Below are positions 5,744 to 64,000 of a DNA stretch of 64,000 bases, piece by piece; positions within the stretch are counted from its first letter, which is position 1, and every line of letters begins with the position of its first letter. Source of the stretch: Nitrosopumilus sp. GTDB taxonomy: Archaea; Thermoproteota; Nitrososphaeria; Nitrososphaerales; Nitrosopumilaceae. The notes beneath the pieces are model-generated. The model saw nothing but the letters and a program-made list of their open reading frames with translations, did not search any database and was not told the origin of the DNA. The position numbers and the translations under genes were made by a program. Location of the stretch: the NCBI GenBank assembly GCA_965223425.1, contig OZ245003.1, positions 1,632,001 to 1,696,000 on the forward strand, in the 5' to 3' direction.

Positions 5744-6568
5744 ATGTTAGAAATTCCTTCCAAATCGATTGATATTCCGCTTGAAGAGATAACGCTGGGC
5801 AAAAGTCAGGCAAGACAGAGAGACACAAAGGTTGACGAAGATGATGATTTGGTTCACAGCATCCGTAAAAATGGACTGATCACCCCGATAATTGTAAAAA
5901 AAATTGAAGATAGAAAATATGAGCTGCTGGTGGGACAGCGCAGATTCCGGGCTCACGAAATTCTAAAAAAATCCACAATTAGGGCCCAGGTTATGGAAAG
6001 GGACATCGATGAGTTTGAAGCCAAAAAGATTTCCCTGATTGAAAATGCGGCACGCAAAGACATGAAGCATGCAGATTATATGGACACCATTCAAATGTTT
6101 ATGGAAAAGTATAACGGAAGAGTGGCAACTGTTGCAGAAGAACTTGGACTGTCAACTGGTACTGTGAGCAAATATTTTTCAGTTAGCAATCTGCCAGAAA
6201 ATGTCAAGAGTAAGGTAAGAGAGAAAAAGATCAGTCCTGCAAACGCTATAAAGGCCCTCAATGCGCTGGGTGGCGAAGTTTCAGAAGTGAATGAAGATGA
6301 CCTGCTGGAAACTGCCGAAGAAATGCAAAAGCTATCTCCACAGTCCAGGAAAAAATTCGTAGAGATAAAGAAACATGAGGAGGGAATTTCCACAAGCAAA
6401 GCAGTGGAACAGGCAAAAAAACGAGTCGAATTACATCATGTTAGTTTAGATGCAACAGACGACCAGCTAATCAGAATAGAAAAATTCAAGGAGAAGGAAA
6501 GCATTGAAGAAACAGGTGACGCAGTGAGTGAATTAGTGGATCTTGGTTTGGATGCATCTGATGTCTGA
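5744..6568 (+). CDS. ParB/Srx-domain protein with HTH
   Basis: LVHSIRKNGLITPIIV, LLVGQRRFRA, ISLIENAARKD, then HTH; start chosen from TTTAAA at 5717. Confidence 0.85.
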   Translation: MLEIPSKSIDIPLEEITLGKSQARQRDTKVDEDDDLVHSIRKNGLITPIIVKKIEDRKYELLVGQRRFRAHEILKKSTIRAQVMERDIDEFEAKKISLIENAARKDMKHADYMDTIQMFMEKYNGRVATVAEELGLSTGTVSKYFSVSNLPENVKSKVREKKISPANAIKALNALGGEVSEVNEDDLLETAEEMQKLSPQSRKKFVEIKKHEEGISTSKAVEQAKKRVELHHVSLDATDDQLIRIEKFKEKESIEETGDAVSELVDLGLDASDV

Positions 6569-59891: not shown

Positions 59892-60170
59892 CTAGAGAAA
59901 GTCCGGGTCGTCATCATCTGTCGGAATCTCCGACTTTTGGCCGCCTGTGTGATTGTTGTCTCTTTCTGTTTTTATTTTGTCATTTATTTCCGCAATCACA
60001 TCCAGGTCAAGGCGCTTTAGGATCATCTCTGCATTTTCTACAAGAAACCGGACATCGTTTAAAATGCCGTCAATCTTTCTCCTGGTCCTTAATTTCTGAA
60101 GCCTTAGTCTTCCAGGCGAAAAAGAGTCAGGTGAGACAATCGCCCGCTTTTGTTTGTCAGTTAGTGCCAT
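59892..60170 (-). CDS. Small protein downstream of the ParM-like gene (ParR-like adaptor?)
   Basis: MALTDKQKRAIV start overlapping the ParM-like stop. Confidence 0.45.
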   Translation of the reverse strand: MALTDKQKRAIVSPDSFSPGRLRLQKLRTRRKIDGILNDVRFLVENAEMILKRLDLDVIAEINDKIKTERDNNHTGGQKSEIPTDDDDPDFL

Positions 60171-61015
60171 TTCTGCGCCTTTGTAAGCATCCCAAGCGCA
60201 TTTGAAAATACTGGGTCCCTTGCTATCTGGCACTTGTCGCGTATTGCCTCATTTTTTATCTCAGAGACAAGCTTTGGTATCAGTGCCCCGCCTCCGGCCA
60301 GAATCACAGGAAGTTCCGGAAAGTCAATGACTGTCTTTGTCAGGGAATCAGATATAGAGTCTGCAAGAAGCTTTCTGTACTGTGAGAGCTCCGGAGTGTC
60401 CTTTGCAAACAGGCTCTTCTCCTTGACGTATCCGGTCTTTGTGTCAGTTATTGCAGAGGTGATGTCTCCGACTCCGTGATCCAGTGTCAGGCCTGAGGCT
60501 ATCTTGCCATTGACTACTGCCATTATCTCAGTGGTTCCATGTCCGATGTGGCACACAATACCGTCCTCCAATCCCTGGTGGATGAGGGTGGCCCTTGCCT
60601 GGTATATGAGCCCAAAGAACTTTGGTCCAAGCGCCTTCATTACTGCCTCGCGAATCTTTTTGCTGTGGTCCCTTGCAGCATATGGGACTCCTGCAACGAT
60701 GACCATTTGTGCATACCTGCCAACGGCAGATGTCCTGGGGGTTCCGAGGATCTGGTCCATTGAGTATTTTATCAGGCTGATATAGTCCTCCATTATTGTT
60801 GGAATCCCGCGATATACGGGCCTCTTTAGTGTCATTGTTTTTATGGTTTCATATTTTGCAGCATCGTATCCGATGTGTGTCGTATCCTTGTTGTTTGACT
60901 CTAGCTCCAGGTGCCTGCCAGTGGCAATTAGTGACGGGAACTTTGTCAATCTGGTCGATGTTGCAATCTTTACAAAGCCGGTTCCAATGTCGAGTCCGGC
61001 AACATATTCACTCAT
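60161..61015 (-). CDS. ParM/StbA-like actin ATPase
   Basis: GLDIGTGFVK, CHIGHGTTE, ILAGGGA, FSNALG. Confidence 0.8.
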   Translation of the reverse strand: MSEYVAGLDIGTGFVKIATSTRLTKFPSLIATGRHLELESNNKDTTHIGYDAAKYETIKTMTLKRPVYRGIPTIMEDYISLIKYSMDQILGTPRTSAVGRYAQMVIVAGVPYAARDHSKKIREAVMKALGPKFFGLIYQARATLIHQGLEDGIVCHIGHGTTEIMAVVNGKIASGLTLDHGVGDITSAITDTKTGYVKEKSLFAKDTPELSQYRKLLADSISDSLTKTVIDFPELPVILAGGGALIPKLVSEIKNEAIRDKCQIARDPVFSNALGMLTKAQKWH

Positions 61016-61443: not shown

Positions 61444-61507
61444 AGGGCCATGATGAGACTCCATTCATTCTGACATCAATATGATGACAGAGATCAGTCT
61501 GAGCCCT
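61444..61507 (+). ncRNA. Box C/D guide sRNA (canonical)
   Basis: AGGGCC ATGATGA gactccattcatt CTGA catcaat ATGATGA cagagatcagt CTGA GCCCT. Confidence 0.85.
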
Positions 61508-61590: not shown

Positions 61591-61654
61591 AGGGCGGTGA
61601 TGAGTTCCATTCATTCTGTCATCATTATGATGATAAACCCCCAGTCCTGGCCCC
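61591..61654 (+). ncRNA. Degenerate box C/D sRNA copy
   Basis: AGGGCG GTGATGA gttccattcatt CTGT catcatt ATGATGA taaacccccagtc CTG GCCC. Confidence 0.55.
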
Positions 61655-61696
61655 CATTCCCCAGCAACACATACCAATTAAAACATTCAAAAAGAA

Positions 61697-61794
61697 AAAC
61701 ATCCTGATGAGCCCTTTTGGGCCAACTCCAATCAGAACATAACTGGTTTGGATGAGCCCTACTAGGGCGAAACTGCCATTGGCAGTCGATGTTT
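61697..61794 (+). ncRNA. Type I hammerhead ribozyme 1
   Basis: Stem I AAACATC/GATGTTT, CTGATGA, stem II GCCCT..AGGGC, GAAA, stem III CTGCC-ATT-GGCAG, GTC cleavage after 61787. Confidence 0.85.
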
Positions 61795-62136
61795 CGCAAA
61801 ATACTTTCGCGAGTATCTGGTGGCGAAAAGCTGCCAACAATCAGAAAGGGCACTAAAGAGTATGCCCTAAGAATATTCCTTCGAGGGGGATATGTTCTCC
61901 GTGATGGTTCACGATTGGTATGTTTGCCCACTTGTTATTGGGATCACAAACTAGACCGGCCATACATGGAATGGTTTGAAATAAGCCGAGACGGCACTCT
62001 AACATATTACAGACTAAAGGATTCTGTAAAGGCTGTTGCCGAGTGCAAGGTTGAATCAAATTATGGGTTCATACCAAAAGCCACATACCCTCGTGTCATG
62101 AAGGCCTGTCGGGCTCCATGCAACTCTGGTTGTTAA
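61789..62136 (+). CDS. Small hypothetical protein directly after hammerhead 1
   Basis: MFRKILSRVSGG..; AUG one nt after the predicted cleavage site. Confidence 0.6.
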   Translation: MFRKILSRVSGGEKLPTIRKGTKEYALRIFLRGGYVLRDGSRLVCLPTCYWDHKLDRPYMEWFEISRDGTLTYYRLKDSVKAVAECKVESNYGFIPKATYPRVMKACRAPCNSGC

Positions 62137-62210
62137 CTGATAATTCCTCTCACGAGGAATATCTTCCCCTTTTTATTAAACTGTAAATTTACAGCATGCC
62201 AAACCGGCAT
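62134..62210 (+). repeat. Conserved 3' box of the cassette (second copy at 62589-62670)
   Basis: ATTCCTC/GAGGAAT hairpin, T-run, ATGCC/GGCAT hairpin in both copies. Confidence 0.8.
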
Positions 62211-62234
62211 TCCAATGAAAACTTTCAAAAAGAA

Positions 62235-62332
62235 AAACATCCTGATGAGCCCTTTTGGGCCAACTCCAATCAGAACATAACTGGTTTGGATGAGCCCTGC
62301 TAGGGCGAAACTGCCATTGGCAGTCGATGTTT
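62235..62332 (+). ncRNA. Type I hammerhead ribozyme 2
   Basis: Identical to copy 1 except one stem-II base; cleavage after 62325; 538 nt period. Confidence 0.85.
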
Positions 62333-62560
62333 CGCAAAATACTTTCGCGAGTATCTGGTGGCAAAAAGCCACAAACCAAAGAGTGTCCAGATAACATTGT
62401 CTGCATGGAAGACGAAAGAATCGGATACATCGAACGTGACGGTTCGCGGTTGGAACGTTATCCATGGAGATGTCAGCAGGAAGACTACGATAAAGGTTAT
62501 CCAGAACTGAAATGGGCCAACCTCCGGTTAGACAAAGCAGCTTGCAGAGAAGCAAGTTGA
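62327..62560 (+). CDS. Small hypothetical protein directly after hammerhead 2
   Basis: Same first 12 aa as the 61789 ORF, then largely divergent. Confidence 0.55.
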   Translation: MFRKILSRVSGGKKPQTKECPDNIVCMEDERIGYIERDGSRLERYPWRCQQEDYDKGYPELKWANLRLDKAACREAS

Positions 62561-63134
62561 CTCAGAGTCTTCATACGTCTTTGGTTACTAACTGATAATT
62601 CCTCTCATGAGGAATATCTTCCCCTTTTTTATTAAACAGAAACTAATTTTACAGCATGCCAAACCGGCATCCATAAATCATTCTTGAAAATATAACATCA
62701 AATCAAACACGGCAATCGCACAGAGACATGCAGATGAGCTTTTTTATTATCATAATTTTATCAATTCAACATCATATTGGGCCAGTGTCCCAATTTACAA
62801 AGGCAAATTTCAGAAAATTTCACGCCATTGCTTCCTTATTATGATGAGCAAGAAAAAAACACCCTATTATCCGCGCATCAAGCGAGAATTTGAGCCCGAC
62901 CCGGAAGACAAGGAAATCTGGTAGGCGCTCATGCCCCTTTTTTTCTATAACATCCATTTGATTGTTTTATCATTATGTACATGCGTTCCGGCATGTCTTT
63001 ATGAAATTGTAATGATGACTGGCACGGGGCGTATGGAATCGCCTGAGTTTCGGACTGTGATGAAACAGTTTGAGCAAAGTCCACACGAGTGCCCACATTC
63101 AATTCATGAAACAGCGAAAGCTTGACCAAGAAAA

Positions 63135-63186
63135 CCATGCCGATGTGCTCTACTTGAGCGAAACAGCCCTTTGTGGCAGTCCATGG
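63135..63186 (+). ncRNA. Divergent/degenerate type I hammerhead 3
   Basis: CCATG CCGATGT GCTC-tactt-GAGC GAAA CAGCC..GGCAG TC CATGG; two core deviations and one stem III mismatch. Confidence 0.55.
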
Positions 63187-63596
63187 AAAGAACCATGACA
63201 AAGAAAGTCAAATTTCTTAAAAGGAGACTTGCCTGTTCCTTGCGTATAGAAAACATCTCTTATCGACTGATGTTTGATTGCGGTCCAATAGGAAGACCAT
63301 ATTCTGCAATCGTTTATCAGCTGATGTTTGATTGCGGTCCAATAGGAAGACCATATTCTATAATCGTGAGTCTAGTCAACAAGCTTCTCAGAAAAGAAAG
63401 ACTCTATCCTAACGACTACGACAGTCCGGATTTTCCTGCATGCTGCAGAAAAACGATTGTTGGGTTGGAAAATACCAGTAGTATTAAGGGCAGCGCATTT
63501 CCTCACAGATGCAAGACCTGCAATAGGGAGTGGCAATACTACTTTGGATATGTGTTGCATAGTAGCCTATTTGGAGAACAGCCAATATGGGACTGA
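63183..63596 (+). CDS. Small Cys-rich protein directly after hammerhead 3
   Basis: ATG 63183 one nt after the GTC site; CC..CxxC; internal 18-aa duplication. Confidence 0.55.
   Translation: MERTMTKKVKFLKRRLACSLRIENISYRLMFDCGPIGRPYSAIVYQLMFDCGPIGRPYSIIVSLVNKLLRKERLYPNDYDSPDFPACCRKTIVGLENTSSIKGSAFPHRCKTCNREWQYYFGYVLHSSLFGEQPIWD
63260..63367 (+). repeat. 54-bp in-frame tandem duplication
   Basis: YRLMFDCGPIGRPYSAIV / YQLMFDCGPIGRPYSIIV. Confidence 0.9.
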
Positions 63597-63727: not shown

Positions 63728-63790
63728 GGGGGCCATGATGAGACAGAACAGTTCCGACTCTGTGATGAGTGAGACGACATCCGAGTCCTC
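63728..63790 (+). ncRNA. Box C/D sRNA with CCGA D/D' boxes
   Basis: GGGGGCC ATGATGA gacagaacagtt CCGA ctct GTGATGA gtgagacgacat CCGA GTCC. Confidence 0.7.
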
Positions 63791-63867: not shown

Positions 63868-63981
63868 GGGGGCGATGATGAATAAAATTATGGCCCAATC
63901 TCATGATGAGACACAACAGTTCCACTCCTGGAATCCACCTCCTCCTAGAAGGTTCTGTGACAGGCCGCTATCTGAGCCCCC
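63868..63981 (+). ncRNA. Degenerate/extended box C/D sRNA
   Basis: Same TCCAACGGGGGC leader, ATGATGA at 63875 and 63903, terminal CTGA GCCCCC. Confidence 0.45.
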
Positions 63982-64000
63982 ATCAATCATACAAATTAGA

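Follow-up and report, generated by a model that had tools for sequence, protein, structure and literature searches.

Why should the chromosome of an archaeon carry two nearly identical hammerhead ribozymes in tandem on the same strand, and what would their cutting do to the RNA that lies between them? The question is raised by a locus near the right end of a 64,000-nucleotide (nt) window of the genome of Nitrosopumilus sp. (assembly GCA_965223425.1, contig OZ245003.1; G000:C1:1632001-1696000); the window is the whole stretch of DNA that was analysed, and positions are given in its numbering. The genome (2.64 Mb, two contigs) encodes archaeal AmoA and not McrA, so the host is an ammonia-oxidising archaeon. 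In an earlier note on this stretch it was proposed that the tandem hammerheads excise a 538-nt monomer that could circularise as a retrozyme- or viroid-like unit. The reading favoured here, with confidence a little above an even chance, is that a hammerhead strips the leader from a transcript and frees a near-leaderless messenger RNA (mRNA) with a 5′-OH end, cassette by cassette, in an integrated conjugative element.

Two type I hammerheads and their predicted cut sites

The near-identical 5′ blocks 538 nt apart, which the earlier note put at about 135 nt, prove to be longer: a direct repeat of 169 nt with 95% identity (61670-61838 versus 62208-62376, spacing 538 nt). Each copy contains a complete type I hammerhead, AAACAUC-CUGAUGA-[stem II]-GAAA-CUGCC-AUU-GGCAG-UC-GAUGUUU, with a stem I of 7 base pairs (bp; AAACAUC/GAUGUUU), a stem III of the form ACUGCC-AUU-GGCAGU, and a long stem II closed by G10.1-C11.1. 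In HH1 (61697-61794, plus strand), stem I occupies 61697-61703/61788-61794, the CUGAUGA core 61704-61710, stem II 61711-61768, GAAA 61769-61772, and stem III 61772-61786; C17 is at 61787, which places the predicted cut at 61787/61788. HH2 (62235-62332, plus strand) is a copy of HH1 with one nucleotide changed in the internal loop of stem II, C17 at 62325, and a predicted cut at 62325/62326. Thus, 61788-62325 is the exact fragment between two predicted cuts, and the claim of tandem same-strand hammerheads holds: a read-through transcript cut at both sites would release an RNA of 538 nt that bears a 5′-OH and a 2′,3′-cyclic phosphate. The near-palindromic stem III, which had been considered suited to dimeric hammerheads, forms a stable 6-bp hairpin with a 3-nt loop; hence no dimer is needed, and the dimeric-hammerhead idea has been dropped.

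Motif and fold are both shown. HH1 and HH2 carry every position of the hammerhead core, C3-U4-G5-A6-N7-G8-A9 ... G12-A13-A14 ... H17 (here CUGAUGA, GAAA, and UC), and when 61690-61805 is folded without constraints, the minimum free energy (MFE) structure is the three-way junction of a hammerhead, in which stem II is a 58-nt rod. The energy of this fold is −39.4 kcal/mol versus −23.9 ± 3.4 kcal/mol for shuffled sequences (z −4.5), and none of 200 shuffles is as good. A scan of both strands of the 2.64-Mb genome with a hammerhead descriptor gave six matches, with compact strong stems (7/5/6 bp) in HH1 and HH2 only, while three block-shuffled genomes gave 1, 0, and 1 matches. As a separate candidate, the CUGAUGA core was considered as the C box of a C/D small RNA (sRNA) and rejected: within 61697-61794 there is no D box, no such terminal stem, and no Rfam C/D match.

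A covariance model built from HH1 and HH2 (R1) uncovered two further members, HH3 and HH4, on the same strand. HH3 (63135-63186, plus strand; C17 at 63181, predicted cut at 63181/63182) is a degenerate minimal hammerhead with the core CCGAUGU (U4C, A9U) and an A.A mismatch in stem III; it scores 23 bits with R1 and 62.7 bits with the model R2 (see below), whose training set includes HH3 itself, and its fold is no better than that of shuffles (z −0.7). HH4 (63996-64058, plus strand, L001:3996-4058, with only 63996-64000 inside the window) has the core CUGAUGU (A9U) and C17 at 64047, and its unconstrained MFE fold is the hammerhead junction; both HH3 and HH4 agree with the conserved core in part only. 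The array therefore comprises four same-strand hammerheads in 2.4 kb, each next to a single gene, as in the clustered hammerheads of mobile elements (at least two on the same strand, flanking single genes). The complete three-helix arrangement, with G10.1-C11.1 and A15.1-U16.1, stems II and III closed and stem I open, is found in the unconstrained folds of HH1, HH4, and three relatives from other genomes (G158a, G158b, and G290_4). Stem II of HH1 and HH2 (61711-61768 in HH1) holds a second, decayed half-core, GAUGAGCCC (UGGAUGAGCCC), recognised because the minimal HH3 and HH4, with their working core, align with the 3′ half of HH1; this alignment suggests that the long-stem-II form may have arisen by partial duplication of a minimal hammerhead. 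Self-cleavage of HH1-HH4 is a prediction from motif and fold.

At all four sites, C17 is followed by one nucleotide and then by the AUG of an open reading frame (ORF). ORF1 (61789-62136, plus strand) encodes a Cys-rich orphan protein of 115 amino acids (aa), for which no homologue was found in a word-indexed search among proteins of 63-202 aa and no match in Pfam, PHROG, or Atlas. ORF2 (62327-62560, plus strand; 77 aa) begins with the same 12 residues as ORF1, and the two are paralogs with 40% identity over 70 aa. ORF3 (63183-63596, plus strand) encodes a 137-aa orphan and has a T7 run after its stop codon, while HH4 precedes, in the form of C-AUG after C17, the gene of a membrane-anchored SNase-like nuclease of 221 aa (64049-64714, plus strand; Pfam SNase 1.6e-8; phrog_452 endonuclease 2.6e-15). 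ORF3 also bears a 54-nt tandem duplication, 89% identical, at 63255-63362, which repeats an 18-residue peptide segment (MFDCGPIGRPYS.IV).

The start-codon rule and a proposed link to leaderless initiation

The genomes searched for relatives are samples of their groups, and the absences given here apply to those searched. Over 150 other genomes of the genus, R1 found a copy in G158 (E 0.008) and a decayed remnant in G152 (E 0.43). R2, a covariance model built from six copies, matched two of the same 150 genomes (G158 and G133) and, among 150 genomes drawn evenly from the order, another two (G290 and G178, the latter from another family), and a pattern search lacking any AUG requirement over 401 genomes of the family added G321. 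Five copies lie within 2.5 kb in G290, and five at two loci in G321. The clustered mobile-element hammerheads, referred to below as class A, number 17 in five genomes (four in the Nitrosopumilus genome under study, G000, two in G158, five in G290, five in G321, and one in G133). HH4 and the three relatives G158a, G158b, and G290_4 fold into the junction unconstrained, and one G290 copy passes Rfam RF00163 (35.4 bits versus the gathering threshold of 34), two others reaching 33.8 and 28.2 bits. Eleven bacterial genome matches to an AUG-containing pattern did not fit the model and have been set aside.

In covariance model alignments from the five genomes, the AUG follows C17 by one nucleotide in 13 of the 17 class A copies and by two nucleotides in the remaining four, without exception. 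The AUG lies inside stem I, paired with the CAU that immediately precedes CUGAUGA; covariation is seen in the flanking pair 1.1-2.1 (G-C, C-G, U-A, A-U), and the 5′ strand of stem I also follows codons 2-3 of quite different proteins. Eight copies from G290 and G321 match the pattern that lacks any AUG requirement. Since the structure would also permit an offset of 0, the ribozyme does not dictate that a nucleotide be retained. ORFs of at least 39 codons open from 14 of the 17 AUGs, compared with an expectation of about 9% in random sequence of the same composition and 33% for all ATGs in these gene-dense loci. The three exceptions are an 11-codon ORF in G158, whose stop overlaps (UAAUG) the start of an SNase-like gene, a 26-aa ORF in G290, and the odd-cored G133 copy (9 codons). 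The hammerhead-led ORFs thus include SNase-like nucleases in G000 and, via the 11-codon upstream ORF, in G158.

Two comparisons define the reach of this rule. In an unselected scan of viral contigs (at least 134 loci), the matches listed comprise 130 distinct hammerheads, 119 of them with good stems, and an ATG stands at offset 1 in two of these 119 listed well-formed viral type I hammerheads, which is the 1/64 chance rate. Metagenomic matches picked for N-AUG open short ORFs only in about 29 of 40 distinct cases; among 21 distinct unselected neighbours in those loci, four have N-AUG and four have GUG or UUG, with most of the following ORFs short. The short ORFs of the metagenomic set point to chance AUGs in a large hammerhead population, and the rule is therefore claimed for the archaeal family only.

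The helices themselves covary. When 68 loci from the metagenome pattern scan were combined with the genome loci and aligned with R2 (83 hammerheads, 73 distinct), 92.5% of the cells paired versus 65.6% after shuffling (reached in 0 of 500 shuffles) and 29-38% when the partners were slid, a margin that is large even though an alignment fitted to the model favours the structure. Compensatory changes on both sides were seen in 16 of 18 pairs. The same ribozyme stands before genes unrelated to one another, both here and in the other genomes, and the AUG always follows its cut by 1-2 nt, an arrangement that argues for the processing of mRNA 5′ ends.

A host that begins translation without a leader would suit such processing. 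Across 858 well-anchored gene starts of the genome, a TATA-like hexamer peaks 31-27 nt before the ATG (134 hits; the background is few per position), which is the signature of leaderless mRNAs in this host. Shine–Dalgarno (SD)-like motifs peak at −16 to −11 in a separate subset of genes (200 hits over the 858 starts), and none was found before the cassette AUGs in the window. Since the host natively uses leaderless initiation, a cleaved product would be translated as a near-leaderless mRNA. Further, a second conserved hammerhead class of the family, class B, was examined at 21 loci (L247-L270) in the genera g24 (10 of 11 genomes) and g30 (13 of 63). Its sequence is UCCC-CUGAYGAGUCCGUGAAAYUCGGACGAAACAAC...GUUGUC-GGGAGA (e.g., L262:1501-1544, minus strand), and it is situated between two genes; its predicted cut precedes a strong AGGAGGUGA by about 12 nt and the start of a signal-peptide protein of 207-230 aa by 27-30 nt. 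As class B would cut before an SD and class A at the AUG, the cut sites appear to be matched to the mode of initiation.

The proposed course of events presupposes that the ribozymes cleave in vivo, that co-transcription occurs, and that the product is translated. Transcription would come from upstream, starting at a promoter ahead of the C/D-box-like elements described below or at one immediately in front of the ribozyme. The hammerhead would then fold and cleave after C17, and the 5′ fragment (the leader with any C/D-like element, plus the ribozyme body) would depart with a 2′,3′-cyclic phosphate. The mRNA would begin with a 5′-OH, a single −1 nucleotide, and the AUG, which cleavage would also release from stem I; such a product would be translated as a near-leaderless mRNA whatever lies upstream, cassette by cassette, and each cassette would terminate at its own hairpin and T-run. 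In S. solfataricus, the 5′-triphosphate of a leaderless mRNA mimics a −1 base (PMC11698992), which offers a reason why a 5′-OH product should retain exactly one nucleotide.

Several observations weigh against this scheme. The promoters could not be placed: a TATA matrix made for this analysis gave 18 hits over the array versus 16 expected. If each cassette has its own T-run and an unplaced promoter, the scheme does not explain why a ribozyme should be used instead of a transcription start at the AUG. Removal of the 5′ phosphates weakened the toeprints of leaderless initiation complexes in S. solfataricus (PMC11698992). Rfam at its gathering thresholds gives 0 matches in the window, HH1 and HH2 fall far under every Rfam hammerhead threshold (20 bits versus 56.3 for RF03152, RAGATH-1-hammerhead), and RF00163 (Hammerhead_1) does not report them; these low scores are attributed mainly to the 58-nt stem II. 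Inspection by eye, with no systematic search, revealed no tertiary contact between stems I and II (loop-loop or pseudoknot complementarity). HH3 (U4C, A9U, stem III mismatch) and HH4 (A9U) may be slow or dead. Finally, the consensus of R1 and R2 contains CAU/AUG, so the copies found by the models are biased toward the rule, and because of recent duplicates (HH1/HH2; G321 A/B; G290_2/5) the independent events are fewer than 17. Apart from these points, two equal sub-threshold RF00163 matches elsewhere in the genome proved to be duplicated coding-like sequence without a CUGAUGA core and were rejected.

The phosphate result also feeds a different explanation, namely that the hammerhead exerts negative or conditional control: a 5′-OH mRNA would initiate poorly or decay differently, or stem I would mask the AUG until a signal permits cutting. 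The predicted fold does sequester the AUG in stem I before cleavage, the 5′-OH does weaken leaderless initiation complexes in S. solfataricus (PMC11698992), and HH1 and HH2 could use their long stem II as a regulatory platform. However, neither a ligand-binding nor an alternative conserved fold came to light, and in the minimal relatives the stems are short and plain. Moreover, uncleaved RNA has no SD and no evident route to translation, so that cleavage looks activating. Control of this kind is considered unlikely.

It could also be asked whether the hammerheads do anything at all at present. HH3 is clearly decayed, G290_5 (G12 -> U), the G133 copy, and the G152 remnant are degenerate, and the cargo ORFs are orphans, all of which would be expected of inactive relics brought in with mobile DNA. 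Nevertheless, HH1 and HH2 retain every core position and all helices, the helices covary across genomes, and the AUG rule is constant across differing cargo genes and genera, which makes the relic explanation highly improbable.

Unit boundaries, upstream elements, and genomic setting

The conserved structured 3′ box reported after each of the first two ORFs is indeed present, as 61 nt with 87% identity (62114-62174 versus 62569-62629) plus 27 nt with 96%. Box 1 (62139-62210, plus strand; z −3.6) consists of a hairpin (62139-62163), CCCC and T5 (62166-62174, with T5 at 62170-62174), TTATTAAA, and two small hairpins; box 2 (62594-62670, plus strand) consists of a hairpin (62594-62618), CCCC and T6 (62621-62630, with T6 at 62625-62630), and a distal hairpin. 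Box 1 is probably an archaeal oligo-T terminator, and its reading as a TATA-like element scores low.

This arrangement bears directly on the circular-RNA proposal. There, transcription would read through the T-run into a multimeric precursor, from which the 538-nt monomer would be excised and then circularised by RtcB or by reversal of the hammerhead reaction, either as a coding circular RNA or as a retrozyme/viroid-like mobile unit. The tandem same-strand hammerheads 538 nt apart are suited to this course, and the ends of the folded 538-mer pair and re-form stem I, with the 5′-OH next to the cyclic phosphate (z −4.5; 0 of 100 shuffles as good). The suggested ligation by RtcB is sound insofar as the genome encodes this enzyme (589.5 bits), whereas the retrozyme/viroid-like or RNA-mobilised interpretation attached to it finds no support: no RVT_1 match, and hence no sign of a reverse transcriptase, was obtained in the 99.99%-complete genome, although control genomes were detected, and no dispersed copies are seen. 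A DNA search with the unit returned only this locus in its own genome and nothing in 40 relatives, and R1 and R2 match nothing else in the genome. Instead of multicopy dispersed or tandem identical monomers, which characterise retrozymes, there is a coding unit with its own hairpin and T5, and the hammerhead-to-hammerhead units of the array (538, 856, and 866 nt) differ in content, so there is no repeating monomer. Furthermore, the position rule looks as if made to generate a 5′ end, which a circle lacks. For clustered prokaryotic hammerheads, circular or spliced products have been sought and went undetected (Perreault 2011, PMC3088659). The array is also present in public DNA contigs of four runs, with roughly double depth over the repeat, and no joints occur in them, although DNA cannot show RNA back-junctions. 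Taken together, the excised circle is very unlikely.

A hybrid of the two ideas would be a circle-to-line switch, in which read-through precursors are cut at one hammerhead after another, RtcB closes the pieces to coding circles that are stable and cannot be translated (some of them with C/D-box-like elements), and re-cleavage by the same ribozyme one base before the AUG yields a translatable leaderless mRNA. If this were true, a conjugative element could store and release messages; the proposal is hardly probable at all.

The C/D-box-like elements just mentioned lie 20-60 nt upstream of 11 of the 17 class A hammerheads and have extended terminal stems (GAUGAGGGC...GCCCUCAUC). Five can be located in the array, all on the plus strand. 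Element 1 (61445-61507) has C, D′, C′, and D boxes and a GGGC/GCCC terminal stem, with sub-threshold SNORD60 as its best Rfam match (27.8 bits, E 0.018); element 2 (61593-61651), 45 nt upstream of HH1, has a degenerate D box (sR55, 16.3 bits, E 1.7). A weak element upstream of HH3 (63007-63077; SNORD110, 18.2 bits, E 4.6) has boxes recognised by eye. Element 4 (63731-63790; sR2, 17.2 bits, E 1.3) shares its central 42 nt with another public-run contig, and element 5, a long form, lies at 63870-63982, about 20 nt upstream of HH4. In G290, an element is found 31-36 nt upstream of four of the five copies (L275 200-267, 620-680, 1885-1945, and 2258-2314, minus strand); three of these score 27.9-33.8 bits with snoPyro_CD (gathering threshold 45), and the fourth (200-267) matches other C/D families only, at about 23 bits or less. 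C/D-like element, ribozyme, and ORF may thus constitute a repeated sRNA-ribozyme-ORF module.

Such frequent pairing raises the possibility that the hammerhead serves the upstream non-coding RNA by setting the 3′ end of a C/D-box-like precursor, the proximity of the ORF being secondary. The association (11 of 17 class A hammerheads, four of five in G290) gains weight from the rarity of C-box sites of this type, of which there are 16 in the 2.64-Mb genome, eight with a matching D box. On the other hand, 6 of the 17 hammerheads, HH2 included, have no such element, and a role in 3′-end formation leaves unexplained both the exact 1-2 nt spacing to the AUG and the placement of the AUG in stem I. As to the elements themselves, none reaches its Rfam threshold, several D boxes are degenerate, and a guide search against 16S and 23S ribosomal RNA (rRNA) gave no complement of at least 10 nt, with one 9-nt match at a background rate of 9%. 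This explanation is regarded as distinctly unlikely, and leader removal from the mRNA remains the preferred reading.

Between the second and third hammerhead cassettes lies a conserved micro-ORF of 27 aa (62841-62924, plus strand). Its C-terminal end (…PRIKREFEPDPEDKEIW) is nearly identical to that of the 26-aa hammerhead-led ORF of G290, which belongs to another genus (PRIKREFE.DPEDKEIW is common to both), and for this reason it is probably a real micro-protein gene; no hammerhead was detected upstream of it in the window.

As to the setting, genes for a T2SSE ATPase, two TraG/VirD4-like ATPases, a TBP homologue, an MmeI-type restriction-modification enzyme, and a ParM-like actin are located upstream of the array, and two transfer RNA (tRNA) genes downstream, just beyond the nuclease gene. 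Given the upstream conjugation genes and the adjoining tRNA genes, the array sits in an integrated conjugative element, at the end that lies next to the tRNA genes. The tRNA genes (L001:4869-4954 and 6003-6090, equivalent to window positions 64869-64954 and 66003-66090; 59.6 and 56.1 bits) are spaced by 1134 nt, and a 127-aa Cys-rich ORF (MGMYDEVVA.ITCPCCKRRY...) is present in one copy after each of them, a duplication that looks like a duplicated attachment end of the conjugative element. The ParM-like gene (60161-61015, minus strand) is divergent from the array. Just upstream of it is a perfect 19-nt inverted repeat (61057-61075/61274-61292), with arms 198 nt apart and an A-rich spacer, which may be a partition site or an operator.

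The relatives have comparable neighbours: a ParM-like gene, TnpB, a DDE transposase, and a nuclease in G158, and a restriction enzyme in G321. In G158, the nuclease gene downstream of the hammerheads is followed by five tandem paralogous ORFs of 124-145 aa (MGKAEVLARALKNMTEKNTRSKIR...; L273:9088-11538, minus strand), with no hammerhead detected between them. Three copies of the palindrome GGTGACCCCTCACAGGTCACC precede the first hammerhead cassette of G158 (L016:2270-2500, minus strand); this palindrome may be an operator or a centromere-like site.

Comparison with known systems

Full-text literature, outside which most subscription journals lie, contained no report of hammerheads in Thaumarchaeota/Nitrosopumilus or of natural hammerhead-made leaderless mRNAs. 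If the mode of action favoured here is right, hammerheads would join the RNA biology of ammonia-oxidising archaea, linked with C/D-box-like elements in a repeated sRNA-ribozyme-ORF module, and a direct test would become available of whether a single −1 nucleotide replaces the 5′-triphosphate in archaeal leaderless initiation.

Retrozymes and viroid-like hammerhead RNAs exist in many copies, do not code for protein, and depend for their copying on borrowed reverse transcriptases or RNA polymerases. The present array resembles them in that its tandem hammerheads could set free an RNA of unit length whose ends can be ligated, and differs in being a single locus with protein-coding units of unequal length and no reverse transcriptase. 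It is also similar to engineered constructs, where a ribozyme between promoter and message removes the leader and fixes the 5′ end, except that here the layout is natural, conserved, and keeps the −1 nucleotide; should the cuts be real, a ribozyme-created 5′ end for leaderless translation, so far a laboratory trick, would have a natural counterpart. With RF00163 and RF03152 of Rfam, the hammerheads share the core and type I topology, the G290 relative passing the former as described above, but stem II of HH1 and HH2 is a 58-nt rod with a decayed second half-core. The long stem II and the A9U core keep these hammerheads under the Rfam thresholds, and the models built here find them.

Closest of all are the clustered hammerheads of prophages, which flank single genes or short gene blocks and for which a role in cutting long transcripts into gene-length mRNAs has been proposed (Perreault et al. 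2011, PMC3088659). In both cases same-strand hammerheads are situated between small genes of a mobile element, and circular or spliced products were considered there, too. Unlike the prophage clusters in that description, the array belongs to a conjugative element of an ammonia-oxidising archaeon rather than to a bacterial prophage, the start codon is in stem I with a leader of 1-2 nt, giving a putative leaderless rather than SD-led product, C/D-box-like elements often stand directly upstream, and stem II of HH1 and HH2 is unusually long. In the same source, the HHphage hammerhead of the haloviruses HF1 and HF2 lies 13 nt before a start codon, and the transcript 5′ end has been mapped within 3 nt of the cut (PMC3088659). 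This is likewise an archaeal mobile genome with a hammerhead just upstream of a start codon; however, the distance is 13 nt there versus 1-2 nt here, and HHphage has a variant core with insertions, needs high salt, and leaves the start codon outside stem I, whereas in the Nitrosopumilus array the AUG is itself a part of that helix.

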